A DNA stretch of 64,000 nt from positions 2,112,001 to 2,176,000 of the forward strand of contig OY762654.1 of the NCBI GenBank assembly GCA_963666205.1. Reading direction: 5' to 3'. The position numbers and the translations under genes are program-made. Of this stretch, positions 7,391 to 36,389 are shown in pieces (position 1 is the stretch's first letter; every line of letters begins with the position of its first letter). The stretch is from Synergistales bacterium. Its GTDB lineage: Bacteria > Synergistota > Synergistia > Synergistales > JAFGMB01. The notes under the pieces were generated by a model. That model saw only the letters and a program-made list of their open reading frames with translations. It made no database searches and was not told the DNA's origin.

Positions 7391-7444
7391 ATGGCTGAAT
7401 TTAACTTCGATATTATCAAACACTTTGGAACCTTATCCGAATAA
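7391..7444 (+). pseudogene. 5' stub of a YdbC/PC4-like ssDNA-binding protein gene
   Basis: RBS AGGAGG, then ATG; MAEFNFDIIKHFGTLSE* resembles YdbC N-termini; ends at the repeat at 7446. Confidence 0.6.
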
Positions 7445-7479
7445 TGGGGTCAAGCCTTGCATGCACGGTTTTGTAGTGC
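7443..7479 (+). repeat. GGGGTCA junction site, subtype 1
   Basis: AATGGGGTCAAGCCTTGCATGCACGGTTTTGTAGTGC; near-identical to copies at 31106 and 36338. Confidence 0.9.
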
Positions 7480-7571
7480 TATCCAGTGTGTGGGTCATGT
7501 TTAGAAAAGGAGATATCTACATTCTTCTGGTGGAAAATCGTTCTTATTCGGATACCTGGATCTTAAGATCC

Positions 7572-8060
7572 TTATTTCCTTTCATACATTTTTTTGATGA
7601 TCTTTTTTCCTGAAGCTGTTTTGAAGTATTTGTCTGCAAAATCCATGGCAGTATTTTTATCCAAATCCTTTTCTGGTGCATTGACGAGGAAGTCCGCTTC
7701 CACAAGTACTTGGAAATCAATGCCATCAATATACTCAAAACTGTGATGATGGCCGATGATGAAACACACTCTTTCTATTATGTCTTCATTTATCTGCAGT
7801 TTCTCCAGAATACCCCTGGCTACAGGAGGACCTTCGGTTTCCTGGCATTTCCAGGCGGAGGTTTTGAACTTGCGTTCGCATTCCTTTATACCTATGTCGT
7901 GGAGTATTGCTGTAATGGCGATTATTTTCCGGGTTTCGGGATCGAGGGACTCCAGTTCGGATATGGCACTGGCGTAACCGTACACCTTAACTGCATGATC
8001 TATTCTCTTTTTGTCATTCCCGAATGTTGCGATCATTTCTGCTATGGGCAATGGAGACAT
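7572..8060 (-). CDS. HD-domain phosphohydrolase, copy 1
   Basis: IDH..V, LHDIG, GHHH, EADF; RBS AAGGAGG before ATG 8060; ~80% aa identity to 23508..23996 by manual count. Confidence 0.85.
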   Translation of the reverse strand: MSPLPIAEMIATFGNDKKRIDHAVKVYGYASAISELESLDPETRKIIAITAILHDIGIKECERKFKTSAWKCQETEGPPVARGILEKLQINEDIIERVCFIIGHHHSFEYIDGIDFQVLVEADFLVNAPEKDLDKNTAMDFADKYFKTASGKKIIKKMYERK

Positions 8061-8161
8061 ATGTGCTCCCTCCTTAGTAAATCGATTCTGATCTATTCTA
8101 TTTGTTACATAATTGAGTTGAATATATCCCAGTGTAATAAGAAAGACAAACCCCCATCTAT

Positions 8162-8193
8162 AAAATAGGGTCAGGTCTTGAATTGCCACATCT
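8162..8193 (+). repeat. GGGTCA junction site, subtype 2
   Basis: AAAATAGGGTCAGGTCTTGAATTGCCACATCT, matching AGGGTCAGGTCTTAACTTGCCATATTT at 15323. Confidence 0.75.
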
Positions 8194-8720
8194 TTATCAT
8201 TTGGGATGTTACGATTCTGAGGCACAATGTTCTCATAACAGAAAGCATTTGAATTCTGGGTGATATCACTCATAGTAAAAAGTGGATAGTAGATTAAGAC
8301 TGAAAAATGTATTTTCCCAAGGAGATTCCTTTCAAAAATCCTAGAGTTTCACGGGAAAAAGTTGTGGTGTCTGAATTTGCTTTTTATGAGAGCTATCTCA
8401 TTCTGGATGATCTGGACAGGTGCTATAATTAAAATCAGTTAAATTTCATTTTATTTTTTCTTTACCTATATACTTTCTTCTATTTTCAGGTCTTTGCATA
8501 AATACAAATTATTCAGCCCTTTTGATAAGACAAAAGAGAGGTGATGCGATCTGGTAAACCCTTTTTACGTCTTGCTGTGCATACTGGTTGAATAACTGGG
8601 ATATTCGTGGTTCAAGAGCATTTCATGTCTCATTTATTCCTAATATCTTTACCCCCAAACATAACATAGATACACCAGACTTCGAAGAATATTTCACAAC
8701 CTATCATTCTTCTTAAGGGA

Positions 8721-10442
8721 GTGGTTAGAGTGAAAAAGACATTTCTTGTTCTTTTTACTGTTCTGGTTCTGTTGATCTTTTCAGGTTCCTGTTATGCATA
8801 TGAATTTGAGGTTGCAACATCAGATGATTTACGGTTTGCTCTTGATATTGCTGATGATAACGGTGAAAGTGACACTATTACATTATTGCCAGGGACGTAC
8901 GAGACAGGAGGTACTTATTTTTTCTATTCAGCAATTGTACCTCCGGGAGCTACAGGTGACCTGACAATTATCGGATCAGGCGATGTTGTACTGGATGGAG
9001 GAAGCTCAAGTCAAGTATTAAATATAGCTTCAAATTATTCAACAGTTATTACTCTCAGGAACCTGACTGTCCAAAAAGGAGTTGCTCTTGAAGGGGCTGG
9101 AGCAAACATTGATATCGAAACAGGAACGATCAATGTGGTTAACTGCTCTTTCAAAGATAATTCCGCAATCGAATATGACGCGGGAGGACTGTATGCCAAC
9201 ATAGATAATGGAGGCAATATCCAGGTTACAAGCTGTGATTTTTCCGGGAATACGGCAAACGAGACAGATGCAGATGGAGGAGGCTTATACGCCAGAGTTA
9301 ATAGCGGAGATATAACTGTTATCGCCAGTTCCTTTAATGGGAACGAAGGTGCACGATATGGTGGAGCTGCCCATCTTTATTTAACAAACGGGAACCTAGC
9401 CCTTTCAGACTGCACCTTTACGAATAATACAGGCAGTGCTTCTGACTGTTATGGAGGCGGCGCATATATAGAAACAGACGAGGTCAACTGTGTGGTCACC
9501 GGAAATACATTTTCAGGCAATATCTCCCCTTACACTGCAGGTGGTATATCTCTTTACAGTTATAATGGCGGCGCATATTTTGCATCCAATAACCTGGAAG
9601 TTAATAGTGCGGACTATGGCGGTGGAGCGTTTATTTACTGTGAGGGGAACCTGACAGTGGAGAACAACATATTCACCGACAACATGGGTGCAGAATATGG
9701 TGGCGGAATAGCATTTGAGACAGGTGGCTGGCTGGAGGATGCCCATCACGTGATCTTCAGGAACAATCTGGTAGCAGACAATACTACTGACTATAAGGGA
9801 GGAGGAGTACATTTCATTTCACGTTATGTTGCAAGTGCAGATATAATCAACAATACCATTACCGGCAATACCTGCACTGGTGATGCCACTTGGTCATACG
9901 GCGGAGGTCTATATATCGAATGTGCCTATTCTGAAACAGACTTTTCTATATACAACAACATTCTATGGGGCAACACCAGTTACAGTGTTAATAGGACTAC
10001 CATCGGACCTGATGACCTTTTTCTCTATGACGACGTGTATATGAATTATTTCTACGTATATAACAATCTTCTCTCTGTTATCCAGAAGGATTTCAACGAC
10101 GGAGGCAGCGTCTTCTCAAGCGGATCTAATTATAATACCCTTGATCCTCTCTTTGTCTCCGAAACAGATTATCACCTTCAGGAAGGTTCTATTGCCATAG
10201 ACCGGGGAGATAACCTGGCACCAAGCCTTCCTTTAACCGACCTGGACGGAAATGACAGGATCTACGGAGGTACCGTGGACATGGGAGCCTATGAGTACGA
10301 TTCGATCCCAACGGGAGACGACGAAGATGATGACGATGAAGATGGCAATGGAGGCGGTGGTGGAAATTGTAATATCGGTTCCTTCATTCCTTCGATGTTA
10401 CTGCTGATCGCTCCTCTGCTTCTTCTTGTAAGGAAAAGATAA
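8721..10442 (+). CDS. Secreted right-handed beta-helix repeat surface protein with Synergist-CTERM
   Basis: Signal peptide; repeated FxxNxA..GGGLY; DYHL..GSIAIDRG..DLDGN..VDMGAYE; GGGGGNCNIG-TM-RKR terminus. Confidence 0.85.
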   Translation: MVRVKKTFLVLFTVLVLLIFSGSCYAYEFEVATSDDLRFALDIADDNGESDTITLLPGTYETGGTYFFYSAIVPPGATGDLTIIGSGDVVLDGGSSSQVLNIASNYSTVITLRNLTVQKGVALEGAGANIDIETGTINVVNCSFKDNSAIEYDAGGLYANIDNGGNIQVTSCDFSGNTANETDADGGGLYARVNSGDITVIASSFNGNEGARYGGAAHLYLTNGNLALSDCTFTNNTGSASDCYGGGAYIETDEVNCVVTGNTFSGNISPYTAGGISLYSYNGGAYFASNNLEVNSADYGGGAFIYCEGNLTVENNIFTDNMGAEYGGGIAFETGGWLEDAHHVIFRNNLVADNTTDYKGGGVHFISRYVASADIINNTITGNTCTGDATWSYGGGLYIECAYSETDFSIYNNILWGNTSYSVNRTTIGPDDLFLYDDVYMNYFYVYNNLLSVIQKDFNDGGSVFSSGSNYNTLDPLFVSETDYHLQEGSIAIDRGDNLAPSLPLTDLDGNDRIYGGTVDMGAYEYDSIPTGDDEDDDDEDGNGGGGGNCNIGSFIPSMLLLIAPLLLLVRKR

Positions 10443-10465
10443 ACTAACTTAAGAAACAAGTATTG

Positions 10466-10494
10466 AAGGGTCCTTTCACCAGGACCCTTTTTTT
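10466..10494 (+). terminator. Intrinsic terminator
   Basis: AAGGGTCCT / AGGACCCTT followed by a T-run. Confidence 0.75.
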
Positions 10495-10584
10495 ATTCTG
10501 GCAGGGATCTGTATTGGCTCAGGAGGTTTGGAGATTTTATCCAGGTTCTGTCAAAAGATCACTGTAAAAAACACTAAGGCCCAG

Positions 10585-10645
10585 AAAATCGGGGTCAGGC
10601 CTTGCGCGTGCGGTTTTGCACAACAAAATGATTCCTCTACATTTC
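10585..10645 (+). repeat. GGGGTCA junction site, subtype 1 variant
   Basis: AAAATCGGGGTCAGGCCTTGCGCGTGCGGTTTTGCACAACAA..TTCCTCTACATTT. Confidence 0.8.
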
Positions 10646-10661
10646 ATTTTTTAAAAACAAA

Positions 10662-10693
10662 AAAAGCCGCTGCCTTTTACGACAGCGGCTTTT
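10662..10693 (-). terminator. Intrinsic terminator of the DUF3089 gene
   Basis: AAAAGCCGCTG / CAGCGGCTTTT. Confidence 0.7.
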
Positions 10694-10742
10694 GAACATT
10701 TCGAATTATATCGGTTCGGCGGAGGCTTACGTTCTATCTGCC

Positions 10743-11747
10743 TTACTCGCCGTGGGATTTCATGTAGGAACTGACCCGAAGTTCGGCGTTCCGCCTGAGG
10801 TTGCGGTAGAAGAAGGTGTAGTCGTAGGGGTGGTAGAATCCGGGGATACTCATGGCATCAAGGTCTTCGATATTTGAGGGCGTTGAAATGACAAAAGCCC
10901 CGTTGACAGTCTGTCCACCCGTGTAATGCGGGATATCCATTACACCTGTCTCGGTGAAGAAGACGGCCCCCAGGTTCCTGTCGGCCTGAGCTGACTCTCC
11001 GGTGATTTTCATGGTGAGCGGGTTTACTGCCACAGCTCCCTCGCGAACGATGCTGTAATCCGCGTTCAATCCCTGGGTGTTATAGCTGATGATGCAACCC
11101 GTCTGATCGTGGGTTTCTGCCATCTTCAGGTGGGGATACCGGGCCAGGTCATCCTCTGTAACGGACCAGCCAATGATATAGGCCGCAACCAGTTTCTTTC
11201 TCAGATCCGGGTTGCCGAAGCGCCGCTCCATAAGGTGCAACAGGTGTTCCGATCCCTGGCTATGGCCGGCAAGGATGAATGGGCGTCCCTTGTTCCAGTG
11301 GGCCATGTAGGCGTTGAATGCGGCCTCCACATCAGTGTAGGCTAAATCCAGGGACTGCCTTTCAGGACTGTCCTCGGGAGTGTGCAATACGGCCAGATTA
11401 GCCTGGCGGTAGTAGGGTGCAACGAGGCAGGCAGAAGACGAGAATACCCCAGCCTGGCTCATCATGAGCTCTTTCACCTCGGGGTCGGCGGCCTCTCCCT
11501 CGAGGGACTGGTTCCAGTTATCGTCTCCTCGATAGGTCGTGGGGTGAACGAAGAAGATATCCACCGGATAGGAACGAGAGTCTTCGGGAAGGACGGCCCA
11601 ACTGTCCTGTGAGGAATAATCAGGGGTTGCTGGCACAAGATTCAAGTCGAAAGTATGGTTCGGATCGGCACCGGACGGCCCGGAAAAGCCCAGGACCAGA
11701 ATGAGTGTGCATAATATGAGGAGTGTAAAATCGAGACGTTTGGACAT
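10743..11747 (-). CDS. Secreted DUF3089-family alpha/beta hydrolase
   Basis: Signal peptide; DIFFVHPTTY, APYYRQA, ILAGHSQG, YHPYDY..FY.NL. Confidence 0.85.
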   Translation of the reverse strand: MSKRLDFTLLILCTLILVLGFSGPSGADPNHTFDLNLVPATPDYSSQDSWAVLPEDSRSYPVDIFFVHPTTYRGDDNWNQSLEGEAADPEVKELMMSQAGVFSSSACLVAPYYRQANLAVLHTPEDSPERQSLDLAYTDVEAAFNAYMAHWNKGRPFILAGHSQGSEHLLHLMERRFGNPDLRKKLVAAYIIGWSVTEDDLARYPHLKMAETHDQTGCIISYNTQGLNADYSIVREGAVAVNPLTMKITGESAQADRNLGAVFFTETGVMDIPHYTGGQTVNGAFVISTPSNIEDLDAMSIPGFYHPYDYTFFYRNLRRNAELRVSSYMKSHGE

Positions 11748-11959
11748 GTTGTTTCGCTCCTTTGTTTTATGTATGTTTGAGGTCCAGCGACCATGCCTCA
11801 GGCCGTTGCTCTTCTGGATTCCCCTATTTTCATACGCCTGAAGACCGGTCTCAATGACGGACTCTAGACAGGTGGTTTTTCTATCGGGGAAATGATCCTT
11901 ATTATACTCACGTGTTGCTCTTTTTCAACATGATTACGGTCGTAAGGTTTATATACAGG

Positions 11960-12020
11960 GAAATGGGATCAGGCCTCGCACTCTAGGTTTTATCGTACAG
12001 AAATTCCTCCTCTGCAATTT
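11960..12020 (+). repeat. Degenerate GGGGTCA junction site
   Basis: GAAATGGGATCAGGCCTCGCACTCTAGGTTTT..CTCCTCTGCAATTT, collinear with the 10591 copy. Confidence 0.6.
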
Positions 12021-12178
12021 CTTTAATATTCTTCTGATTTTGTTTTATCCTATTAGCCTGGATATGGTAGGGTATAGCTTATATGGAATGGTTCATTAAT
12101 GGGCTGTGGAAAATTTATCGGAGCAGTCGATGTACTGAATTGACGTGTTTTTATAACAGCAGGGGGTACGAAGATAAC

Positions 12179-13816
12179 ATGACCAGGGTCTGTGATGTTG
12201 ATGTGCTTATCGTCGGAGGCGGACTTGCCGGGTTATCGGCAGCTCTTGTGGCTCGGGAACAATTTCCTGAAGTTGGCCTTGTCTGCAAAAGTAAGGCTGG
12301 AAAGAGCGGGAATACCCTTATCTCTGCCGGGGTCCTGAGTCTTGCAACAGAGGAGGGTGGATACGGAGACGATCCGGCTATCTTTGAAAAGGATATTCTG
12401 GATTCGGGTAGCAAAATAAATAACGCAGAACTTGTTAAGGTCTTTGCTGAAGAGTCAGGGTCTGTAATTCCATTTCTGAGAGAAAATGGAGTGGTATTCA
12501 AGAGCATTGACGGCAAATTCCTGGTAAAACATCCGCCGGGACATTCGATAAGCAGATCCTTTATCGCTGAGTACAAGTCCTGTTCCTACTTTAACAGAGG
12601 ATTGCCTCTGACTTTACCCCTGCTTCAGAGAGCTTTGGAGGGGAGAGTAAAGGTCTTTGACGAAACAACAGTTATAAAACTTCTGACAGACGAAAAAGGA
12701 ATTGTTGGTGCAGTTGCCCTGGACAACAATACGGGTGAAAAGCATCTCTTCAGGTCAAAAGTGGTCATCCTTGCAGCAGGCGGGGGGGCAGGGTTGTTTG
12801 AAAGACACAACAACACTTCCGATGTCTCCTGCGATTCCTGCAAACTGGCATATGAGGCCGGAGCTGTCCTGAGGGATATGGAAATGGCCCAGTTTCATCC
12901 TTCCATGATGTTCGAACCTGTAAAAATGATTATTTCCAATCCACTCTTCGGTGCTGGTGCCGTTCTGAAAAACATTAAGGGCGAGGAGTTCATGTATCAT
13001 TACAGCGAGAAAGGGAACCTTGCTACAAGGGATGTCATGACCAGGGCGATCAAGACTGAGATAGATGAAGGGCGAGGGAATCCCCATTACGTGTTTATGG
13101 ACTGTTCAAAAATTGACCCAGAGGTGCTGGATAAGAAGTACGAAGAACTTTCACTTATTCTTAAACGGGTCGGTCTTGATATAAAGAAAGATGGTATTCC
13201 TATCTGTCACGCGGCCCATTTCTATATAGGCGGAGTGGATATAGACAGAGATTGCCAAACATGTGTGGAGGGCCTTCTTGCATGTGGTGAAGCGGCGGGA
13301 GGTCTTCATGGGGCGAACAGGCTGCCGGGGGTAGCCCTGGCAGAATCGGTTGTTTTCGGCAGAATAGCCGGTAAAACCGCGGCAGATCTCTGTGAAAAAA
13401 GGACAGGAACAGCAACACTTACAGAATCAGTGGATATCCTGTCTGAAAGAAGATCCGGCGGAGTACGGCTGCAGGACCTGATGAAAGACCTCCGTTCAGT
13501 TATGTGGGAACATGCTTCCATAACGAGAAGTGAAGGATCACTGAGTCGTGCAAAAAAAGAACTGGAGCACATAGTAGAGCAGAAGGATCTGGCAGGGGTG
13601 AAGAATATCAGGGATATTCTCTGCTTCCATCAGCTGGAGTCGATGATCTTGGAAGCCCGTATGCTGATTGAGGTCAGTGAACAGCGCAAAGAAAGCAGAG
13701 GTGCTTTTTTCAGGACTGATCACCCTGAAAAGGACGAAAGGTTCCGGGGGAATTTCTTTGTTAAAAAGAATGCTGATGGAGAGATGGAGTGTTGTTTCAG
13801 AAAGGCAAAACCATAA
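12179..13816 (+). CDS. FAD-dependent oxidoreductase, SdhA/FrdA/NadB family
   Basis: VGGGLAG, QFHPS, LATRDV, HFYIGG, GLHGANRL, RKESRG; start taken at MTRVCDV. Confidence 0.85.
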   Translation: MTRVCDVDVLIVGGGLAGLSAALVAREQFPEVGLVCKSKAGKSGNTLISAGVLSLATEEGGYGDDPAIFEKDILDSGSKINNAELVKVFAEESGSVIPFLRENGVVFKSIDGKFLVKHPPGHSISRSFIAEYKSCSYFNRGLPLTLPLLQRALEGRVKVFDETTVIKLLTDEKGIVGAVALDNNTGEKHLFRSKVVILAAGGGAGLFERHNNTSDVSCDSCKLAYEAGAVLRDMEMAQFHPSMMFEPVKMIISNPLFGAGAVLKNIKGEEFMYHYSEKGNLATRDVMTRAIKTEIDEGRGNPHYVFMDCSKIDPEVLDKKYEELSLILKRVGLDIKKDGIPICHAAHFYIGGVDIDRDCQTCVEGLLACGEAAGGLHGANRLPGVALAESVVFGRIAGKTAADLCEKRTGTATLTESVDILSERRSGGVRLQDLMKDLRSVMWEHASITRSEGSLSRAKKELEHIVEQKDLAGVKNIRDILCFHQLESMILEARMLIEVSEQRKESRGAFFRTDHPEKDERFRGNFFVKKNADGEMECCFRKAKP

Positions 13817-13822
13817 CAAGAA

Positions 13823-13963
13823 TTTTACCGCAGAGGTCGCGGAGAAACCCGTAAACCCTTTGTATGACTGAGCAAAATCAGACTAGATTTTTCTCGAGGA
13901 AATCAAGAATCCAGAATCGATTTACCGCAGAGGACGGGGAGGTTGCGCTGAGGTGCGCAGAGG
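13823..13963 (+). repeat. TTTACCGCAGAGG short repeats
   Basis: TTTACCGCAGAGGTCGCGGAG (~13824) and TTTACCGCAGAGGACGGGGAGG..GCGCAGAGG (13921). Confidence 0.6.
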
Positions 13964-14451
13964 AGACCTTATACCATTAACCCGGAACATTATGGTCAAA
14001 AGAAGACCTGTTTTGCCCTTACGGTAATGCAACAAATCCACTTGAAAACTTTGACAATCTTTCCCGTGAATTTTTTCCCATTACCTGGAAAAGGATTTCA
14101 TCATTTTCCTGATGTTACGGGTTTTGAGGACACTTCTTCACAAAGAGACAAAAAGAGGGCAAGAGCTCTTCAACCCCGGACATGTGAGTAAAATGATAGT
14201 TCATTTTACTCATCGGCATTAACATATTCTATCCAGGCTCTTACGATCCTGTCTTCGACTATGTATTATGCCGAAAAAATAATATACATATTTTTTCATA
14301 TGTCCCGGGTTTCAGGGGAAAGTTCGCATGAGGTGCTTAACCCCGATTCATCAGAGAAAATAAAAAACAATCATTAAATCTGGATAGTTACAGGGCTTAT
14401 GACATGTATGTAGCAGATATGCATCACACCTGGTCAGAAAGAAATCGTGCT

Positions 14452-14520
14452 TCTTCTTAACATTTCCAAACATTTCTTAACCCCAAATAAACAGCTTTAT
14501 CTGTATACTTCTGTCCGTAG
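14452..14520 (+). promoter_or_regulatory. Promoter block shared with the Spy/CpxP-like gene
   Basis: 57/69 ungapped identity to the reverse complement of 20839..20907; TATACT -10-like hexamer. Confidence 0.7.
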
Positions 14521-14572
14521 AGCGGAAGTCTGGTTCAAAAACATGTTCTGACTGCAGGAGGGTATAAGAGTT

Positions 14573-15295: not shown

Positions 15296-15320
15296 TGCTG
15301 TATTCTCCAGAACAGGAAAA

Positions 15321-15447
15321 TCAGGGTCAGGTCTTAACTTGCCATATTTGCTCTATATGCTGCTATATCAATAGTTTTTTAAGTTAAGATTCAGCAATTA
15401 TTCTGGCAAAAAAACCTAAAATATGACAAATCAAACCCTGACCCTGA
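15321..15447. mobile_element. 127-bp MITE-like element with 29-bp GGGTCAG terminal inverted repeats
   Basis: TCAGGGTCAGGTCTTAACTTGCCATATTT vs reverse complement TCAGGGTCAGGGTTTGATTTGTCATATTT (24/29). Confidence 0.7.
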
Positions 15448-15452
15448 GGGTG

Positions 15453-16331: not shown

Positions 16332-16332
16332 G

Positions 16333-26997: not shown

Positions 26998-27324
26998 CAC
27001 AGTTATATCACTATGCATGTGTACCATATCCTTGAGGATTTGTAAGGAAATGACAGATCCTACCTTAATGAATTACGCACATTTTCTTAATTTTCCCGGT
27101 AAATCAGAATTCTACATGGGAAGCCTGGAGCAGTAGTTCGAATTTATAATGGGAAGTTAAGAAGAATCTGGCTCTTTTCTTTCAGACCTATTTCTACGCA
27201 TTGACTTGGTGAAGGTATGTTTAATTGACACTCTTTCTTTATATAAGTATTCTGTTAAATAAGAATTGAAAGTTGTTTCCTCATTAAATCCATCCGCAGA
27301 TGCCTGCGGTATCCCAAGTCGGAG

Positions 27325-28887: not shown

Positions 28888-28981
28888 CCTGCAGTAAAGA
28901 TTGCTTGATGTAACACTGCAACATAACTATGGCCTGATGAATCTGTTTCAGACCTCCGATCCGATGAGAAGGAGTGAAACT

Positions 28982-31003
28982 ATGAGTAATTTCAAAAGAT
29001 ATGTTGTTCTTGTTCCAGTTCTTATTGCGCTTCTGTTTATTCCTTCATGGTACGCTGAGGCCCTGGAGTCAGGGGGGAATTATCCTCAAACCATCTCCAC
29101 AGCCCGGGAGGTTCTGTGGAAGGCCATATCATCAGGTGTTAACTCTGCCACAGTTGCTGTAATGGATGGAGGGAATATCATCTATTCCGAGTGTTTTGGT
29201 CCGGCAGACCGTGCAGAGAACAGGCTGGTGGATGCCAATACCCGTTTCAACATAGGATCCACCAGCAAAATGTTCGTTGCAGTTGCTACCCTGCTGCTTG
29301 TCGACGAGGGCAAGCTCGATCTTGATGACCCTGTGGTCAAATATATTCCGGAATTTACCATGCCTGACGAGCGGTACAGGGATATAACGGTTCGAATGCT
29401 CTTCAACCATTCATCCGGTTTACCGGGTACAACCTTCCTGTTCGGTGAAGATCCGGGCAGGGATCTCTATATGCTTCTTCTGGATAATCTCAAGGAGACT
29501 TATCTGAAGCATGTCCCCGGAGCTATGAGTATTTACTGCAATGACGGTTTTACCCTTGCGGAAATGATCGTGGAACGCCTTTCGGGACAAAAATATATGG
29601 ACTTTATCGATGAAAGGATCTTCAAGCCTCTGGGAATGAAGAACACGGGGCCCAGTATAGGTGAAAGAGGCGGAAATGTTGCGGAGTACTATGATCCCGG
29701 CAATGGAAAGAAATATCCCCTGGAGACGGTGCTGGTCCATGCCGCAGGAGGGCTCTCCTCAACACCGCAGGACCTCTGCCGTTTCGGTGACAGTATGGCT
29801 CCAGGCGGGAATAATATTCTTTCCAGGGCTTCTCTGGAAGAATTAATGAAAGAACAGCCTACAACTTCGGTGGGTTGGTTTAAGGGGAATGCCCTTTATA
29901 ATTCATTCGGTTGGGAACATGCCTGGCTTCCCGACTATAAAGAAAAGGGGTACCAGGTCCTGGGTAAGGGAGGTAATACGGTATATTATTCCACCGGATT
30001 ACAGATACTGCCGTCTGAGAGAATCGCTGTTGCCGTAATAATTTCAGGGCAGGCCAGCGGAGAAGGTCTGACCAGTCCCATTCTGGATGCCCTTATGGAG
30101 GATAAGGGGCTTTTTGACAGGGAAGCACAGGTAGTTGCAAAACCGGTGAAGCCTCAATCTGTTCCCTCCGAGATGCTTCCCTTTGCGGGCTATTATGCAG
30201 ATGAAAAGACGGCTGTACAGTTCGTCTTCGATCAGGAAAAACAGACCCTGAGCATCTATCCCATACTGCCATGCCCTCCTGAAGGGAATGGAGAGAGGGT
30301 ACCTGCGCTGGTGTTGACCTATAACAACGGGTATTTCCATAATTTTGAGAAAAACATGCACTGCTATTTTCTGGAGGAAGAGGGAAATACCTTTCTTGTA
30401 GTTGAGAAGATCCCTGTCTATGGCAGCGATGTCTGGATCTTTCAGAAACTTGAAGAGATGGAAGACCCTGTGAAGCTTTCAGTTGAAATGGATGAATCCA
30501 TCTGGCTCGTGAGAAATATGCCTGCCCTCACCATGGTAGATGACGATCCATTTATGGTCAGGTCTTCCCTAAACCCTGCTATGCCGGGATATCTTTCCTT
30601 CTACGGGGTGGTGAAAATAGACGATCCCGATCATGCAGGCATTGCCGCTACTGCTTTTCGTGATCAGAGGGATCTGGTGCTTTTCCGGAAAAACGGTGAA
30701 GTACGTGTTAAGACGGGATTATTTGTTTTCTCTTGGGAGAATGTGGCCAGGATTCCTGAACCAGGGGTGAACACTGTAACGATCGGTGCTGAGGGAGAGA
30801 ATGAATGGATGAAGGTCGAGTCGGGATCTGTTCTTTCCTTCGAAAAGCCGAAGAATGGGCGTGTTCTCTTAATGTCGGCCGGGAAAGATACACCAATGCT
30901 ATACGACAGCGAGGTTGATAGCGGAGAAATATATGCGCCCGCGGGCAGCTTTATCTTTTTCGCCGGATCTCCGGGGGATGTGTTCGAGGTAAGGGCACGG
31001 TAA
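28982..31003 (+). CDS. Secreted serine hydrolase (beta-lactamase class C family)
   Basis: FNIGSTSK, YCND, KGG; RBS AAGGAG before ATG 28982. Confidence 0.85.
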   Translation: MSNFKRYVVLVPVLIALLFIPSWYAEALESGGNYPQTISTAREVLWKAISSGVNSATVAVMDGGNIIYSECFGPADRAENRLVDANTRFNIGSTSKMFVAVATLLLVDEGKLDLDDPVVKYIPEFTMPDERYRDITVRMLFNHSSGLPGTTFLFGEDPGRDLYMLLLDNLKETYLKHVPGAMSIYCNDGFTLAEMIVERLSGQKYMDFIDERIFKPLGMKNTGPSIGERGGNVAEYYDPGNGKKYPLETVLVHAAGGLSSTPQDLCRFGDSMAPGGNNILSRASLEELMKEQPTTSVGWFKGNALYNSFGWEHAWLPDYKEKGYQVLGKGGNTVYYSTGLQILPSERIAVAVIISGQASGEGLTSPILDALMEDKGLFDREAQVVAKPVKPQSVPSEMLPFAGYYADEKTAVQFVFDQEKQTLSIYPILPCPPEGNGERVPALVLTYNNGYFHNFEKNMHCYFLEEEGNTFLVVEKIPVYGSDVWIFQKLEEMEDPVKLSVEMDESIWLVRNMPALTMVDDDPFMVRSSLNPAMPGYLSFYGVVKIDDPDHAGIAATAFRDQRDLVLFRKNGEVRVKTGLFVFSWENVARIPEPGVNTVTIGAEGENEWMKVESGSVLSFEKPKNGRVLLMSAGKDTPMLYDSEVDSGEIYAPAGSFIFFAGSPGDVFEVRAR

Positions 31004-31095
31004 ACAATGGACAACCCATAGTCCTGGAGCTGTTATTCAATCCTTTATCCTTGTGAATTGACGATGTCAATGGTGCTTTGCTACCATAGGTCCCG

Positions 31096-31158
31096 TAATA
31101 AAAGCGGGGTCAAGCCTTGCACGCACGGTTTTGTAGTGCAACTGAATTGAAAACAGAG
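31096..31158 (+). repeat. GGGGTCA junction site, subtype 1
   Basis: TAATAAAAGCGGGGTCAAGCCTTGCACGCACGGTTTTGTAGTGCAACTGAATTGAAAACAGA. Confidence 0.9.
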
Positions 31159-31269
31159 TTTATGATTGCTTAAAGCCCAAAAAGGTAGAAGATTAAACAA
31201 GAGACTGGGGTATGGCTTTAGTCGCCCATCTGGTTCGCCGGATGGATTAGACTGTATATGTCCCCCCAG

Positions 31270-31328
31270 TCTTTTTTTTTGGCATTCCCCAAAACTCTGA
31301 TCATTTCAGCTATCGGCAATGAAGACAT
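31270..31328 (-). pseudogene. 5' stub of a third HD-domain gene copy
   Basis: RBS, then MSSLPIAEMIRVLGNAKKK vs MSPLPIAEMIATFGNDKKR of copy 1. Confidence 0.75.
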
Positions 31329-31550
31329 ATTCACTTCCTTGATAGATCTATCCTGATGATCCTGATTTATTCATCAAATAGTTTTGTTCGGTGAGTTTCA
31401 CCATACACCATTTACCCGTCCTAATTTCTGGGATGGCCAGTTTATTGAAGTCTGAATAAATTTTTCCGTATCTTGAGTTATCTCCCTTAACGTGACCACA
31501 TTTATTTCAATAGAGTGACTCAGGCGGGAGTTTTTTAGGCATCTGCAGAG

Positions 31551-32401
31551 TTATATTCTGTTTTTACCATCTCTTTCAATTATTGTATCGACCTTTTTAC
31601 CCAGATTTTCCTGAATGATCATTTTGAAAATCTCGATCGATTCATTGGAGCTCATTGCTCTTCCGGCAGCAGAAATAATACAATCACCCGCTTTTAGGCC
31701 GAGTGAGGAAGCTACGCTTCCACTGTAAACTATTAGTAAGTAGAATGGGTTTCCTGGTCGGGGCTGAACTCCAAGTCTGAATTTTGACGGACGGGAGCTT
31801 ATCCCAAGGAAATATGTCAGGTCAACAGGGACGGTTTCCTTAAATGTTGCAGACTGTTGATAGAGGTTTGCGGTCTGCTCGCTTTTTTCGAAAATAGTTT
31901 CCTTGGCCAGATTGCGTAAAGCTATGGAACGTTTCAACAAATAGCGGCATTGGGTGGGAAATCTTTTGCCTGTTGTCCGGTTACAATAGCATTAATAAAA
32001 TACTCGCCAGCGCTCAGTCGCTTGTTTACGGCTGCGATAGCGGTGCTGATAAGGTCTTTGCGGAGGGAGTCTTCCGTTGTAATGTCAGCCATCTTGCTGT
32101 CTGCCTGTTTCAGTTTCATCTGGTAGTTATACACATCCTGGGGAACTCCCTGCAGGTATCCGTTGCCATTTGTATTTGTGTCAGCCCAGTCTAATATCAC
32201 AACGTAATCGTAAAGCATCAGAAGAAGATTACCAAGTGCAGAATCTTCTGGTGCCGAGGTTTGTGAACTTTCAGCTACCTTTTGTGGCAGGGGCTGCATG
32301 GTTGCCCATAAGGGACTGTAAAAATTACAAAGTACAGTGTAACTGTCAAGAGAGCAGTGATAGAAGATTTCAGAGTTCTTGTCATTATTCTTACCATCCA
32401 T
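31551..32401 (-). pseudogene. Frameshifted gene for a PDZ-domain protein
   Basis: Overlapping fragments in different frames; C-terminal FRLGVQ..VYSGSVASSLGLKAGDCII..IERDGK is PDZ-like. Confidence 0.55.
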
Positions 32402-32533
32402 TCACAAACAATTAATTTTCCAAGTTTATTATAAGGCTTCCTGGTTTCAATTTTTAGGTGCAATTTAAATAGATCAGTCGAACCGAACATTAATTTCGCC
32501 CCTTCATTCACTGCATTTCTTACATAGATATCT

Positions 32534-32893
32534 TCATGGAAATTGGGTGAAGTCCCACCACAATTCCGAAGCGTAAAAACCCCTTATTAAAGCTTTTTGT
32601 GCGTTGTGAAGTACCACTATCGCTTTCACAGGAGGTAGTGTGGTTATTTCCCAATAAGACTCGTGAATGTCTTTCCGAAGAGGAGAGGCCAGATGAATAT
32701 GACAATCGATCAATCCGGGCATTCCATAACAATTATTACCTGGGATCACATCGTAATTCCCAGTATCAATTTTCATGCTTTTCTCATCAATAAACGAGAT
32801 AGAGTTATTTGAAATACCTGGATTACCCTTATATGGTTCTTTGTTTATTCTGTCTATGATATTCAGATCAGTAATTACTATTAGTTTGTTCAT
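32534..32893 (-). pseudogene. Truncated amidohydrolase (N-terminal part only)
   Basis: MPGLIDCHIHL metal motif, NAQKALIRGF, then a stop at ~120 aa. Confidence 0.7.
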
Positions 32894-34862
32894 ATCCTTT
32901 CTGCTCTCTTTGCAACTTATCGGAAAAGACATAGATCACTACCAGACCTATGATGGCAGTGCCGGATAAAAGCTTGTTAGGTACCATAAGCATAAGGGAA
33001 AGAAGAAAAAGCAATAATTGCACAAACCTGGAGAGGTTGACCCTGAAATATCCTTGTGTCGCTATTCCCAGGGTAATAACCCCGATCAAGGCTGTCAGAA
33101 AATCAATCGAAATATTCAATGCTTTCCCATAACCTAGCAAAGAGGGATTATAGACAAAGAAATAGGGGAGGAAAAATGCTACAAGGCCAAGTTTGACAGC
33201 ATTAGATCCAACCCTGAAAGGATTAGCCCCTGCTACTCCTGCGGCAGCATAGGTGGCAAGTGCCACAGGTGGAGTTATTGGGGCCAGGGCAGAACAGAAG
33301 AATATAAACATGTGGGCAGCCATTGGAGTAACTCCCATTTTCACCAATCCAGGAGCAACCAGCACCGCAAGAAGGGCATAGGTAGCAGGTGTTACAAGGC
33401 CCATTCCCAAGATAACCGCAGCAAGCTGGGTCAATAGTAACCCCAAGATCAGTTTCCCATTTGATACTGTCACTATTATGGAACTTAACTTGAATCCCAG
33501 ACCGGTAAGGTTTAATACAGCAATTACCACTCCTGCGCTTGCACAGGCTGAAGAAACTACGACAAGTGATTTTGATGCTGATCTTGCACCTTTCACTATC
33601 CTTTCAAAATTCGGCCTGGTTGACTGTTTAAGGGAAGCAAAAACAAATAACGCTATAGTGGAATAAAATGCTGCGTTTATGGCTACATTTCTTCTGATAA
33701 GGAGTAATACCAGCAAAAAGATGGGGATTAGCAAATGGATGTTGCTGATAAATGATTCTCTCAAGGGCGGTAGTTTATCCTTTGGGAAACCAATAAAACC
33801 CTGTTTACAGGATTGAGAGTGGACTGCAGAAAAAAAGCCTGCATAGTATAAAAATGCGGGAATGGCGGCTGCTTTCATTACCTCCAGGTATGGAACTCCC
33901 ATGAATTCAGCCAGAATGAACGCAGTGGCACCCATTATAGGAGGTGTAAAGGTCCCACCTGTAGATGCAACGGCTTCCACTCCTCCAGCCCATTCTTTGG
34001 GATAGCCCATGTTTTTCATCAAGGGGATTGTTATTGAACCTGTGGAAACAACATTTGCTACAGTGCTACCTGAAATCATCCCAAAAAACGCACTTGCGAT
34101 AACTGCCATTTTTGCAGGTCCACCAGTCAGACTTCCTGCTATCGACATTGATAATTTCATGAAACCCCTCAATCCCCCAAGGACTTCGAGGTAACTTGCA
34201 AAGAAAATAAAGCCTGCTACGTATGTTGCAGATATGCCCAGAGTGGATCCGAACAAGCCTTCAGTTCCTACAGCTATTTGACTTAAGATCCTTCCAAAGG
34301 AATATCCTCTATGGGCAATGATATCAGGCAGCCATGGCCCTGTTAATGAATAAAGGACACCCATTACTACGATCAGAACGAGAGCCCAACCCATGGTTCT
34401 TCTTGTAATCTCCAGGGTTATCAATATGATCACCAAACCTGCAACCTGATCTACCAAAGTCATTTCTGAAATATACAGCTGTTTCCAGTGCGTTGCCAAA
34501 TGGGCAAGGGCTGCAAGGGCCAATATGATTATCAGGCTATTGACCAGACTTTCAATAACAGGCAAGTTCTTTTTGTCCTTTTTTGTGCGTGGATAAATTA
34601 TCATTGCCAAGGGTATTATGAAAGCCATGTGTATTGCTCTTTGTACATATGCCGGCATGGGAAACAGTGCTGCAGAATAATAAGTAAATAAAAGAAGCCC
34701 TACTGAAATAACAGAAAATGCAACTTGAACAAATCGATTGTCCGGATCAAACCCTTTTGGCTGGATCTCCTGTATGTTCATAACATCGATCTTTTGTAAT
34801 AATGTGACCAAAGAATGTTCCTGAACTAACTTTTCCACGGGTTCCAATCTCTGTTTTCCCAT
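32868..34862 (-). CDS. TRAP transporter fused 4TM/12TM permease
   Basis: GGPAKMAV, FGMISGS, STGG..PPIMG, ITPPVALA. Confidence 0.92.
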   Translation of the reverse strand: MGKQRLEPVEKLVQEHSLVTLLQKIDVMNIQEIQPKGFDPDNRFVQVAFSVISVGLLLFTYYSAALFPMPAYVQRAIHMAFIIPLAMIIYPRTKKDKKNLPVIESLVNSLIIILALAALAHLATHWKQLYISEMTLVDQVAGLVIILITLEITRRTMGWALVLIVVMGVLYSLTGPWLPDIIAHRGYSFGRILSQIAVGTEGLFGSTLGISATYVAGFIFFASYLEVLGGLRGFMKLSMSIAGSLTGGPAKMAVIASAFFGMISGSTVANVVSTGSITIPLMKNMGYPKEWAGGVEAVASTGGTFTPPIMGATAFILAEFMGVPYLEVMKAAAIPAFLYYAGFFSAVHSQSCKQGFIGFPKDKLPPLRESFISNIHLLIPIFLLVLLLIRRNVAINAAFYSTIALFVFASLKQSTRPNFERIVKGARSASKSLVVVSSACASAGVVIAVLNLTGLGFKLSSIIVTVSNGKLILGLLLTQLAAVILGMGLVTPATYALLAVLVAPGLVKMGVTPMAAHMFIFFCSALAPITPPVALATYAAAGVAGANPFRVGSNAVKLGLVAFFLPYFFVYNPSLLGYGKALNISIDFLTALIGVITLGIATQGYFRVNLSRFVQLLLFLLSLMLMVPNKLLSGTAIIGLVVIYVFSDKLQREQKGYEQTNSNY

Positions 34863-35002
34863 ACAGCCCCTCCTGAAATATCCTTATCAAAAAAGAAGAA
34901 ACTCATGATAGCCTTTAAGGTTCAAATCAGAGAAGGAACTCTCTCTCGTAAATTCGTAAGGGGAAAAGGAAGAGAGTTCCTGGGAGGGTATTGATATTAT
35001 GG

Positions 35003-35980
35003 TTATTCGATCAATCCAGCTTCCCTGTAGAATTTTTCTGCTCCAGGATGGAATTTTACAGGCATCCCTTTAACTGCACTTTCAGGGGTGATTACCGCAA
35101 AGGTACTACTTATGTCCTGTAGAGATTTGATATTTTCCATTAGAGTTCTGGTGAATTTGTACATGGTTTCTTCAGAAAGGTTTTTACTGCAGATAACGAT
35201 GTGATTCACTGCAAGAATTTTTGATTTTTCCGGCATATCAAGTTTTTCAAAATCTGAATGAGGCATAGTTTTCACAACGAGATAAGGCAAGGTATCTTCC
35301 ACTTTGCTGTAGCCTTCGTCAGAAATCTCAACAAGTTTGAGTGACTTGGTGGCCAATAATTCCGTCAGACTTGGTAACTTGGGTTTTGCCACATAGGCAA
35401 ATGCGTCAATCTGATTCTGTCTGATCAGATCCATTGCCCCAGACAAACCTGAATATTCAGCTTTGAAATCATCCCACTTTAGCCCGAGAAGGGAAAAGAC
35501 TTCCTTATTAAGAGCTTCATCGCCATCTCCGGGATTTCCAATGGCAATTCTTTTCCCTTTAAGATCTTCAAAAGTATTGATGCCGCTGTCAGCTCTCGCG
35601 AGGAGATACCAATAACCAAAATGTGCAGAGAACCAGCCGTTTACTCCCTGTAGCTTTTCTTTAAAGGGAGGGAGTCCTCTGGTTCCCAAATAAGTAATAT
35701 TGGCCATTGTAAGACCCAATTCTCTTTCCTGATTTGCTATAGTCTCGATATTTTCCATGCTTCCCCGAGGGCTTGGTACTGGGGTGATATTATAGTCTGC
35801 TAATTTCCCATTAAGGATCTGAGACACTCCAGAAGCAAGCATCATCCAACCTCCAGTGGGCGAGGCTGTACCAAAAGTGATCTGTTCTTTAGCTAAACTA
35901 ACTGAAGGAACCAATACTACAGTGAATATCAGAGCTGACGTAAGAAAACCTAAAACAGAGTGCGACTTCACCATTGACAT
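35003..35980 (-). CDS. TAXI-family TRAP solute-binding protein
   Basis: FGTASPTGGW, GSMENI, DLKGKRIAIG, FHPGAEKFY. Confidence 0.9.
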   Translation of the reverse strand: MSMVKSHSVLGFLTSALIFTVVLVPSVSLAKEQITFGTASPTGGWMMLASGVSQILNGKLADYNITPVPSPRGSMENIETIANQERELGLTMANITYLGTRGLPPFKEKLQGVNGWFSAHFGYWYLLARADSGINTFEDLKGKRIAIGNPGDGDEALNKEVFSLLGLKWDDFKAEYSGLSGAMDLIRQNQIDAFAYVAKPKLPSLTELLATKSLKLVEISDEGYSKVEDTLPYLVVKTMPHSDFEKLDMPEKSKILAVNHIVICSKNLSEETMYKFTRTLMENIKSLQDISSTFAVITPESAVKGMPVKFHPGAEKFYREAGLIE

Positions 35981-36110
35981 CTTTCTCTCTCCTTAAATTA
36001 GCTTCCATAATTTTCAGTTCTCGTTTCTCAAATGCCTTCTGAACCAGCAGCAAAAAAGAGTAAATCAGGGGCAAATCTTAAACGGTCAAAACTAGGGTCA
36101 ACTATTGAAA

Positions 36111-36333
36111 CTTGGATTCAACTTATAAGTGCAACGGGTTTAGGAGTGGATAAAAAGGCTAGCTATTGTAATGTCAAGGTTATCCGACCCTAAGCGCCTG
36201 AAAGCAGCACTTATGAGACATTACAGGCAGCTAACCCTTGAACAAAGATACCATCTTTATGCACTTTGTAAAATATATATAAGCCAGAAAAAAAGGCGCA
36301 GGAGATAGGAGTTCATCCATCTAGCATAAGAGA
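36111..36333 (+). mobile_element. IS30-family 5' remnant (left IR + frameshifted transposase start)
   Basis: CTTGGATTCAACTTATAAGTGCAAC end; ATG 36213 MRHYRQLTLEQRYHLYAL.. then shifted AQEIGVHPSSIRE (IS30-type HTH). Confidence 0.7.
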
Positions 36334-36389
36334 AAATGGGGTCAAGCCTTGCCCGAACGGTTTTGTAGTGCAAATACATTGAAATCAGA
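36333..36389 (+). repeat. GGGGTCA junction site, subtype 1
   Basis: AAAATGGGGTCAAGCCTTGCCCGAACGGTTTTGTAGTGCAAATACATTGAAATCAGA. Confidence 0.9.

Follow-up and report, generated by a model that had tools for sequence, protein, structure and literature searches.

Solo TIR copies of the TIRYT/TIRtron kind concentrated in a scrambled accessory-gene zone of a Synergistales chromosome

The locus described here raises the question of what a series of short sites beginning with GGGG, scattered between unrelated genes of a Synergistales bacterium, represents. The window, i.e., the whole stretch of DNA analyzed, comprised 64,000 nucleotides (contig OY762654.1, positions 2,112,001 to 2,176,000). A first-pass annotation made from the sequence alone had described about 11 plus-strand copies of a GGGGTCA core as a polarised array and proposed a cassette capture system functionally analogous to an integron array. 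The results below place the repeats in a known family, and no new recombination system has to be introduced for them.

The 7-mer GGGGTCA proved too short to serve as a marker of the array. It was not enriched in the window (11 occurrences vs 10.9 expected), and 54 of 100 shuffled sequences reached 11. The genuine repeat is an extended element of ~36–44 nt, found by a profile search (E ≤ 9e-4) in 10 copies, all on the plus strand; the nhmmer profile used for the window and for the congener was built on 27 genome copies. The count of about 11 was thus nearly right, except that the possible copy at 36094 had no profile match. No match at E < 10 was found between positions 36375 and 64000, in line with the emptiness noted earlier for 37–64 kb. 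A repeat search recovered the families D3/D4 (at 7441, 10586, 26925, 31101 and 36333), D12 (23304 and 26964) and D13 (8162 and 15318). A degenerate 14-nt box matched the window 9 times vs 0.22 expected, with none of 100 shuffles reaching 9, although this test is partly circular because the pattern came from the same copies; all 9 matches were on the plus strand inside 7446–36351.

Three tail subtypes had been annotated, and all were confirmed: A (7446, 10591, 11965, 26935, 31106 and 36338), B (23302 and 26964) and C (8167 and 15323). Subtypes B and A2 begin with GGGGTCAG, in agreement with GGGGWSAS, and subtype A1 begins with GGGGTCAA, in which A takes the place of the final S. The start of subtype C and of the degenerate copies reads AGGGTCAG or GGGATCAG. 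Identity to the consensus was 23–35 of 36 positions for the subtype-A copies and at least 33 of 36 for all 14 subtype-B copies. Ten folds of the repeats (5 copies, both strands) gave no hairpin better than shuffles (z from −0.45 to +1.57); two further copies were folded on the plus strand only. Among the degenerate inverted copies proposed earlier, that at 15445 is real, while those at ~14344 and ~23493 were at chance level; the best inverted partner of the 23302 copy matched 13 of 22 positions (random mean ~12, maximum 14–15). The window had no Rfam match at the gathering score, neither the window nor the 20 kb on its left side yielded a tRNA, and no recombinase or transposase domain was found in the 59 window ORFs, as the annotation had stated. 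The positions of the features are collected in the table.

Table. Repeat copies and associated genes (window coordinates; the two TIRYT genes in genome coordinates).
Feature	Position	Strand	Evidence and context
Solo TIR, subtype A (GGGGTCAAGCCTTG...GTAGTGC)	7440..7480	+	nhmmer E = 3.1e-8; D3/D4; between FMN-reductase gene and HD gene
HD-domain gene	7572..8060	-	Pfam HD; duplicates elsewhere (D1)
Solo TIR, subtype C (AGGGTCAGGTCTTGAATTGCCACAT)	8162..8197	+	nhmmer E = 1.9e-6; D13; upstream of HD gene
Solo TIR, subtype A2 (tail GCACAACAAAA)	10585..10628	+	nhmmer E = 4.6e-7; convergent intergenic gap
Degenerate subtype-A copy (GGGATCAGGCCTCG...)	11961..12000	+	nhmmer E = 2e-5; 83 nt before flavoprotein gene
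Full flavoprotein gene	12083-13816		Pfam FAD_binding_2 + Succ_DH_flav_C
Subtype-C copy, left arm of the sole inverted pair in the window (MITE-like, ~127 bp)	15317..15360	+	nhmmer E = 6.8e-5; I3; 17/22
Inverted partner of the 15323 copy	15419..15447	-	I3: 29 nt, 83% complementary, 69 nt between arms; 17/22
Solo TIR, subtype B, 36/36 to genome consensus	23298..23338	+	nhmmer E = 1.7e-10
Second HD-domain paralog	23508..23996	-	Pfam HD E = 2.8e-6; 79-80% to 7573-7872; 170 nt after 23302 copy
Subtype-A copy truncated after ~22 nt	26930..26957	+	nhmmer E = 9.2e-4, model positions 2-29 only
Subtype-B copy without first two G	26964..26998	+	nhmmer E = 7.1e-7; D12, 97% to 23304-23337
Solo TIR, subtype A	31101..31141	+	nhmmer E = 8.5e-8; after two serine-hydrolase (Beta-lactamase family) genes
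Solo TIR, subtype A, truncated gene directly 3'	36333..36374	+	nhmmer E = 4.7e-8
3' fragment of flavoprotein paralog	36380..36741	+	cut 5 nt after repeat; 78-84% to 13444-13806 (D2/D5)
TIRYT gene 1	1556563-1557411 (genome)	-	Y1_Tnp 50.2 bits (cut-off 23) + HTH_28
TIRYT gene 2 (paralog)	1642331-1643173 (genome)	-	GGGGTCAGGTCTTG 46 nt before ATG

A profile scan of the whole genome (G000) at E < 0.1 revealed 30 copies, all at 1.055–2.148 Mb, i.e., limited to the origin-proximal 37% of the chromosome. Coding sequence makes up 85% of the genome, and all 30 copies lie in the intergenic remainder, as had been claimed for the window; the three seeming exceptions are ORFs extended upstream of their real start. 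With the leading strand assigned from dnaA at 1.635 Mb and the GC-skew minimum at 1.70 Mb, the GGGG strand is leading-strand sequence in 24 of the 30 copies, counts which do not represent independent events because 13 of the 24 form one cluster. Random dispersal and orientation, with which the capture proposal could not be reconciled, were not what was observed. The polarity of the array held for the window (10/10 copies) but not for the orthologous cluster of the congener (G001, compared as a sister species), in which 5 copies are on the minus and 8 on the plus strand. An inverted partner within 400 nt is absent for 29 of the 30 copies, the only exception being that at 15323. Near genes, the copies occupy convergent, divergent and tandem gaps and show no fixed relation to their neighbours.

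GGGGWSAS is the motif common to the TIRs on either side of TIRYT genes (Di Nocera et al. 2013, PMC3733652), and TIRYT/TIRtron forms subclass 2.1, whose RAYT-like Y1 gene encodes an HTH at the C terminus (Quentin et al. 2018, PMC6006769). In the available text of these two papers, the link between GGGGWSAS ends and RAYT-related Y1 transposases, which the annotation had named, is thus in print. Three Y1_Tnp genes were found in the genome. Two TIRYT genes lie beyond the window with the repeat immediately before each of them, so that the expected adjacency to a Y1/RAYT-like gene was found; a classical RAYT with hairpin REPs is also present at 2.458 Mb. Gene 1, with a REP_Tyr_transpos score of 78.2 bits (below the cut-off of 80), is flanked by subtype-B copies at 1555575(+) and 1557458(-) as 36-bp inverted repeats, and the GGGG of the TIR is located 47 nt before its ATG. 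Two extra ORFs lie between this gene and the distal TIR, and DNA can therefore end up between TIRs. For gene 2, a downstream partner of the GGGGTCAGGTCTTG TIR was not found. The TIRYT protein (282 aa) combines Pfam Y1_Tnp with C-terminal HTH_28/HTH_23, both genes are situated less than 80 kb from dnaA, and both loci are single-copy and colinear in G001.

A PDB sequence search with the TIRYT protein gave no match at E ≤ 0.01, and a fold search was therefore used. The predicted structure of the gene 1 product (pLDDT 82.9) was closest to the E. coli RAYT 4er8_A (E = 1.9e-8, TMt 0.75); the transposases of ISDra2 and IS608 came next. All 20 homologs compared keep H60 and H62, at the H-x-H position, as well as R118-Y119..N123-P124; the intact HUH and Tyr positions suggest a retained catalytic function. 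In distant TIRYT loci, GGGGWSAS (mostly GGGGTCAGGTCTTG) was found upstream in 49 of 72, 44–112 nt off and mostly 45–53, and 34 of those 49 also had an inverted copy, mostly 22–75 nt past the stop. The family is widespread, with at least 7997 of 8000 scored candidates at E ≤ 1e-10 and 45–64% identity across phyla, and the 14-nt end box is kept across phyla as well. The copy at 23298..23338 belongs to the same subtype (B) as the one flanking the TIRYT gene at 1.557 Mb. For subtype A, no matching TIRYT exists among the three Y1 genes of the genome, and its copies, the majority in the window, may be old relics, judging from this and from their identity to the consensus. Based on the above results, the window sites are solo TIR copies of TIRYT/TIRtron units, and the array is probably a by-product of repeat spread in a plastic region; a novel class of site they are not.

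The TIRYT/TIRtron units share with the system described here the RAYT-like Y1 gene with a C-terminal HTH, the non-palindromic GGGGWSAS TIRs at a fixed distance from the gene and, in the available literature, the dispersal of TIRs singly, in pairs or in groups, as a family of moderate abundance. In contrast, nearly all copies here are solo, while the relatives G027 and G028 carry dimers, and one subtype (A) lacks a cognate gene. The origin-proximal confinement, the orientation bias and the packing into scrambled zones found here are not mentioned in the available text of PMC3733652 or PMC6006769. REP/BIME/REPIN systems with RAYT (TnpA_REP) likewise pair a vertically inherited Y1 gene, present once, with a short intergenic repeat of its own that flanks the gene and is dispersed in the genome, and the predicted TIRYT fold is closest to that of the E. 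coli RAYT. However, REPs are palindromic GTAG-tagged hairpins and REPINs are doublets, whereas the repeats here are fold-free singletons with no GTAG-tagged hairpin. With IS200/IS605 elements (IS608, ISDra2), the TIRYT protein is predicted to share the Y1 HUH fold, and the orientation bias fits the lagging-strand-template targeting stated for IS608 and ISDra2 in the accessible part of PMC6006769. Unlike these elements, with their distinct left and right ends, subterminal hairpins and transposases of ~130–150 aa, the TIRtron has 36-bp inverted repeats without hairpins and a protein of 282 aa with HTH.

The likeness to integron attC arrays consists of one-directional short sites between unrelated genes with no recombinase within the array. 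An IntI-type recombinase, attI, a common promoter and the imperfect palindrome of attC are absent here, and the units are 1–6 genes on both strands or fragments, not single promoterless co-oriented cassettes. IS91/ISCR elements encode two-tyrosine Rep-like HUH transposases beside captured DNA and act by one-ended rolling-circle capture. The HUH enzyme, the single recognisable end beside captured or truncated DNA and the apparent absence of a target duplication are common to both; however, no gene of the IS91/ISCR kind was present among the scanned ORFs, and the distance over which the enzyme here would have to work exceeds 450 kb.

A comparison with G001 showed that a 43-kb zone (window −3063..39756) is scrambled relative to G001:C8:309293-347308, with both flanks colinear. 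Repeat-rich 20-kb stretches aligned to G001 over about 27%, 59%, 31% and 18% of their length, vs 96%, 100%, 98% and 87% for four control stretches. Of 11 evaluable repeat-bearing intergenic gaps, 10 are synteny breaks and 1 is conserved, vs 10 broken and 21 conserved among 31 other gaps (Fisher p = 0.0012), the test having been filtered by hand: 10 rows left of −16764 (outside the G001 stretch used) and 9 rows without a match on both sides were left out, and gap 8274-8720 was relabelled as repeat-bearing. Module boundaries that fail to coincide with the sites in a relative, which would have spoken against the capture proposal, are thus not what the repeat-bearing gaps show. Within the scrambled zone alone, unfiltered, gaps with and without repeats do not differ (p = 0.30), and 10 of 20 evaluable breaks there have no repeat. 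Of 21 further copies in G001, 14 either lack homology to G000 or continue at a remote place in G000, on one side or on both. The 59 + 15 + 18 ORFs from the zone and from the corresponding part of G001 yielded no other recombinase domain. In an otherwise colinear stretch, G001 carries a clean 99-nt insertion, consisting of a subtype-B TIR and a degenerate inverted TIR, without rearrangement; it is readable as having an imperfect 7–8-bp target duplication, but the reading is ambiguous. In G027 and G028, the repeat occurs mostly as ~60-nt head-to-head dimers, and no flank duplication was visible in the 6 inspected. Orthologous solo copies differ by 3 changes in 36 at two loci and are not clearly better kept than their flanks; some are decaying (that of G000 at −6022 is reduced to 14 nt, and the 1974009 copy is degenerate).

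Several junctions lie at the repeat edges themselves. The flavoprotein 3' fragment in the table agrees with the earlier remark that genes are cut at the sites. The segment 7454-8009 (556 bp) has a 98% identical duplicate at genome 2109006-2109561, a truncated HD copy which stops at the repeat at 2109570; both ends of the duplicate are illegitimate, one inside the repeat and one inside the coding region. The subtype A2 of 10585..10628 recurs at that same repeat and at G001:C8:324471. Three HD-domain paralogs occur in the zone, each adjoining a repeat copy. The synteny block shared with G001 begins at 12023, just past the degenerate copy, and the subtype-B copy at 26964 starts 5 nt past the truncated A copy. 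In G001, one fragment starts 17 nt after the repeat 323845-323880 and another stops at the repeat starting at 324157. The 3' flank of the beta-lactamase genes carries subtype A in G000 and subtype B at the orthologous place in G001. Moreover, a 1.3-kb gene segment lies between direct copies in both species, again of differing subtypes (G000 1403394/1402035, G001:C14:168082/169820). A circular permutation considered between genome 1.402–1.4035 Mb and G001:C14:168–170 kb was dropped; the 115-nt "moved" piece is itself repeated, with matches of 80% and 86% identity at two places in G000, and is therefore a paralog and not a moved ortholog.

We suggest the following course of events. TIRYT proteins would act in trans on solo TIR ends, the target strand probably being the one exposed as the lagging-strand template, as with other Y1 enzymes. 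Cutting and rejoining at or beside the ends, or recombination between copies, would then contribute to insertions, deletions and re-ordering of neighbouring genes. In the available text of PMC3733652 and PMC6006769, no experiments on TIRYTs binding, cutting or moving TIRs are reported, and the action in trans is our inference. The array itself would have arisen incidentally, as the repeat spread through a tolerant and plastic region, and would not be a machine dedicated to capture. A role of the repeat in the shuffling of the zone is plausible but unproven. In its full form, in which TIRYTs encoded once or twice near the origin cut and rejoin solo TIRs on the lagging-strand template, and DNA flanked by copies on one strand is cut out, lost, put back or exchanged, we consider it unlikely.

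Four other readings were weighed against the data. The repeats may simply spread and survive where insertions are harmless, in accessory, horizontally exchanged DNA, with no part in the rearrangements. The scrambling of the whole zone, with its ten repeat-free breaks and the non-significant test within it, agrees with this, as do the strictly intergenic placing, the 99-nt insertion of G001 that left its surroundings colinear and the decay of several copies. However, random co-occurrence does not predict several truncated genes and homology ends at, or 0–17 nt from, the repeat edges, and the zone yielded no other mobile-element gene that could explain the shuffling; this passive role is possible, if doubtful. 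Under the hypothesis of an integron-like capture system, DNA lying between two copies on the same strand would be cut out as a circle by a Y1 enzyme in trans and put back at a further copy, so that unrelated gene modules would build up. Y1 enzymes use single strands with same-strand ends, according to the accessible part of PMC6006769, and the single orientation in the window, the modules permuted between G000 and G001 with their broken repeat-bearing gaps, the differing subtypes at one flank and around the 1.3-kb segment, and the two extra ORFs in the 1.557-Mb TIRtron are what it would lead one to expect. The units, however, do not resemble cassettes: they range from gene fragments of ~130 nt to 7-kb multi-gene blocks, on both strands and with their own signals. 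Together with the repeat-free breaks, the mixed orientation in G001 and the failure to find any module at high identity in two repeat contexts, except the HD gene with its illegitimate ends, this makes such a system quite improbable.

It is also conceivable that the host uses TIRYTs as DNA-binding factors, with the solo TIRs as their chromosomal sites, e.g., in regulation or origin-proximal organisation. The single-copy, vertically inherited and syntenic genes, the large, well-conserved protein family with its box common across phyla, the location of copies and genes near the origin and the near-invariance of the 14 B copies would suit such a domestication. Orthologous solos no better conserved than their flanks, the lack of a fixed relation to neighbouring genes and the intact HUH and Tyr positions, which suggest that catalysis is kept, speak against it, and we hold it for improbable. 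An unseen DDE transposase moving the repeats as cut-and-paste MITE remnants, with the TIRYT gene merely sitting inside, would account for non-palindromic TIRs, for the head-to-head dimers of G027 and G028 and for the possible target duplication at the G001 insertion. The recurrence of the TIR–gene unit, with a TIR 45–50 nt ahead of the TIRYT start and an inverted copy shortly past the stop, in 34 of 72 distant loci, the six dimers without flank duplication and the lack of a DDE transposase domain near any cluster examined make this origin very improbable.

TIRYT is a very large family without experimental study, and the term was rarely used in the literature searched. If the shuffling by TIRYTs is true, this large uncharacterised family would acquire a function, that of a widespread Y1-driven engine of accessory-gene shuffling, a loose and promoter-independent cassette system. 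If TIRYT acts on solo ends, the spread of such repeats would be explained and a Y1 transposase linked to accessory-gene turnover; if it does not, the annotation of the sites as TIRYT-derived repeats is still useful. The G000/G001 pair offers a compact natural system, with two intact TIRYT genes, three TIR subtypes, one of them near-invariant in 14 copies, and two repeat-dense zones scrambled between the sister species next to colinear control regions.

Breaks exactly at the repeat edges are also expected from RecA recombination between copies or from plain deletions beside an insertion. In Logan contigs of the strain's own runs (X13 and X15), paralogous loci or repeat ambiguity account for the joints at repeats, e.g., 8009->10586 with 'CGG' (the truncated HD locus) and 7479->13484 (the 36338 locus). 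In assembled contigs of a metagenome run, a related organism has the repeats joined differently, namely 10626->8237 and 7479->12020.

The heptamer GGGGTCA, which the first-pass annotation had taken as the defining site of an integron-like cassette shuffling system, is uninformative by itself, with 11 occurrences in the window where 10.9 would be expected. The longer element (~36–44 nt, beginning with GGGG) is real: a profile made of 27 copies from across the genome found ten copies in the window at E ≤ 9e-4 and none in 36375–64000 even at E < 10. A degenerate 14-nt box gave 9 matches vs. 0.22 expected, all on the plus strand and inside 7446–36351, although this enrichment is partly circular, the pattern having been taken from the copies themselves. 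The repeat search grouped the positions 7441, 10586, 31101 and 36333 (family D3; D4 adds 26925) and paired 23304 with 26964 (D12) and 8162 with 15318 (D13). The proposed division into three tail subtypes (A, B and C) holds, and the inverted partner at 15419–15447 was recovered by both the repeat search and the inverted-match comparison. The profile search lent no support to the copy claimed at 36094. Equally unsupported are the degenerate inverted sites suggested at ~14344 and ~23493. A separate feature, a perfect 22+22-nt palindrome without a spacer (20123–20166, I6), lies between two ORFs of no known family.

A profile search of the whole genome yielded 30 copies at E < 0.1. The copy at 1557458(−) ends 11 nt ahead of a 282-aa ORF, and a second, inverted copy is located 1.9 kb away at 1555575(+). 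This ORF carries Pfam Y1_Tnp (50.2 bits, cut-off 23) and HTH_28 domains and scores 78.2 bits against the NCBIfam model "REP-associated tyrosine transposase" (cut-off 80). Its residues H60, H62 and R118-Y119..N123-P124 are invariant in 20 homologs; in RAYTs, the tyrosine of the YxxxNP motif is the catalytic residue. The closest structure to its model (pLDDT 82.9) is 4er8_A, the E. coli RAYT–REP complex (E = 1.9e-8), with the transposases of ISDra2 and IS608 coming next. A paralog at 1642331–1643173(−) has GGGGTCAGGTCTTG 46 nt ahead of its ATG.

The tie between GGGGWSAS repeats and RAYT-related Y1 transposases, stated in the first-pass annotation, is correct, since the arrangement has already been named in PMC3733652 and PMC6006769. 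PMC3733652 defines TIRYT genes and "TIRtrons" (the gene with its terminal inverted repeats, TIRs), the TIRs having GGGGWSAS in common, lying at a near-constant distance from the gene and forming "moderately abundant families" whose members occur singly, as dimers or in groups. According to PMC6006769, most TIRYTs belong to subclass 2.1, with C-terminal HTH_23, HTH_28 or DnaA-like domains. Among 72 TIRYT loci of distant bacteria, each with at least 250 nt upstream, GGGGWSAS (nearly always GGGGTCAGGTCTTG) was found 44–112 nt ahead of the start codon in 49, and 34 had an inverted copy, mostly 22–75 nt past the stop. REPs were considered as an alternative identity and rejected, because the repeats do not fold stably (10 folds, z from −0.45 to +1.57). 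It is thus well supported that the sites are solo TIRs derived from TIRYT elements.

In the subtype-B TIRtron (1555575–1557458), the TIRYT gene is separated from the distal TIR by two additional ORFs, one of 71 aa and PC4-like (Pfam PC4, E = 8.7e-12), the other of 180 aa and without a family. Proteins of the PC4 family bind single-stranded DNA. A third Y1 gene, outside the window at 2458050–2458595, encodes a classical RAYT of ~180 aa bracketed by true hairpin REPs with a sequence of their own; this REP family is tiny, with ~9–12 motif matches genome-wide.

Subtype B (14 copies, each at least 33/36 identical to the consensus) is the TIR of the 1.557-Mb TIRYT gene. Subtype A comprises 7 copies of 23–35/36 identity, all in 2.1096–2.1483 Mb, and no cognate TIRYT gene for it was found in this genome. 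Subtype C is a looser group; the TIR of the 1.643-Mb gene has the 14-nt box in common with it. Although 85% of the genome is coding, each of the 30 copies is intergenic, three seemingly genic ones being counted as such on account of over-extended ORFs. No inverted partner occurs within 400 nt of 29 of the 30, which are therefore solo ends.

All copies fall in 1.055–2.148 Mb, the origin-proximal 37% of the chromosome; dnaA lies at 1.635 Mb, and cumulative GC skew reaches its minimum at 1.70 Mb. Both TIRYT genes are less than 80 kb from dnaA, one of them only 7 kb; that a DnaA-like HTH could target replication is a speculation made in PMC6006769. For 24 of 30 copies, the strand reading GGGG matches the leading-strand sequence (the lagging-strand template; binomial p = 0.0014, the copies being clustered and not independent), in agreement with the behaviour of IS608 and ISDra2 as described in the abstract of that paper. 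The bias is not absolute, as the orthologous cluster of the congener G001 counts 8 copies on the plus strand and 5 on the minus strand. Another dispersed repeat (~100–150 nt, many copies at 78–89% identity) occurs at ~1.03–1.09 Mb and in G001 (contig C3, 53–58 kb); two TIR copies, at 1.055 and 1.076 Mb, lie in its midst. Two inward-facing inverted subtype-B copies bracket 7.4 kb at 2092144–2099570, where genes for LysE, EamA, DUF4412 and pyridoxamine-oxidase-like proteins accompany an ArsP_1 permease gene broken up into two ORFs.

The sole close relative compared was G001, whose ~10–20% nucleotide divergence places single events below resolution; its assembly comprises 20 contigs. The flanks are colinear with it on the left (window −16733 to −3063, ~90% identity) and on the right (39756–47446, 88%). 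The 43 kb between them are scrambled: blocks of 71–88% identity have changed order, are missing or occur in duplicate. Alignable fractions of repeat-rich and control stretches are given in the table.

Fractions of 20-kb stretches aligned to the congener G001; values for repeat-rich stretches are manual sums over those listed matches that reach 300 nt
Stretch	Class	Aligned to G001	Arrangement
Window 1–20000	Repeat-rich	~27%	
Window 20001–40000	Repeat-rich	~59%	
Genome 1.370–1.390 Mb	Repeat-rich	31%	
Genome 1.395–1.415 Mb	Repeat-rich	18%	
Window 44001–64000	Control	~96%	Colinear
Genome 0.30 Mb	Control	100%	Colinear
Genome 0.90 Mb	Control	~98%	Colinear
Genome 2.50 Mb	Control	~87%	Colinear

The idea that module boundaries coincide with the sites stands in part. 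Gene adjacency is lost in G001 at 10 of 11 evaluable intergenic gaps bearing a repeat vs. 10 of 31 without one (Fisher p = 0.0012; one gap relabelled by hand as repeat-bearing, 10 rows outside the G001 stretch used and 9 matching on neither side left out). Within the scrambled zone alone, however, the contrast disappears (p = 0.30), and repeats are missing from half of the zone's breaks.

A flavoprotein 3′ fragment begins 5 nt past the 36338 copy; in G001, one gene fragment begins 17 nt past a copy and another stops exactly at one. Downstream of the serine-hydrolase genes there is a subtype-A copy in this genome and a subtype-B copy in G001, homology ending just upstream of the repeat. Window 7454–8009 (part of a repeat and most of an HD gene) has a 98%-identical duplicate at 2109006–2109561, cut off within the HD coding region by the copy at 2109570. 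This small HD-domain gene is present three times in the zone (window 7572–8060 and 23508–23996, and the duplicate) and three times in that of G001; for 4 of these 6, the distance between the 3′ end and a repeat copy is 90–210 nt. In one metagenome run, contigs from a related organism have other joints at repeats (10626 to 8237 and 7479 to 12020), together with one that links the HD and flavoprotein genes in a G001-like manner.

The TIRs lie in hyper-variable accessory DNA, in many cases precisely where its segments join. We infer that TIRYT acts in trans on these solo TIRs and that such action causes the gene shuffling. Neither the 59 ORFs of the window, nor 15 ORFs to its left, nor 18 of the G001 zone yielded a recombinase or transposase domain. 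Homologous recombination between copies, or deletions beside insertions, would leave similar junctions. Passive build-up of repeats where the DNA is tolerant accounts for some of the pattern. A clean 99-nt insertion in G001 (a B TIR and a degenerate inverted TIR) faces an empty site in this genome with no rearrangement alongside. Of 21 further G001 copies, 5 are in fully colinear context (4 at TIRYT loci), 2 more share one locus colinear with local replacement, and 14 show homology to this genome lost, or jumping to a distant place in it, on at least one side.

The integron-like system first proposed is improbable and survives only as a loose functional analogy. It fails in every defining feature that could be tested: IntI and attI are absent, the repeats are unfolded whereas integron sites fold, and the units, unlike integron cassettes, consist either of fragments or of blocks of several genes lying on both strands.

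The 14-nt box is present in 13 of 41 searched genomes of the order, the reversed-pattern control giving 0–1 match per genome. G001 has 24 exact boxes, and both its TIRYT loci are colinear with their counterparts here. The solo state is a feature of this genus, since G027 and G028, which represent two further families within the order, mostly have perfect head-to-head dimers ~60 nt long.

Two further loci in the window deserve mention. A PDZ-domain protein at 31551–32401 appears as two overlapping ORFs (129 and 155 aa) vs. one 299-aa ORF in G001, and the gene is probably frameshifted in this genome. A 132-aa ORF at 32534–32932 overlaps the TRAP DctM gene start and keeps no more of an amidohydrolase domain than its N-terminal 50 residues; it is probably the remnant of a gene and does not adjoin a repeat.
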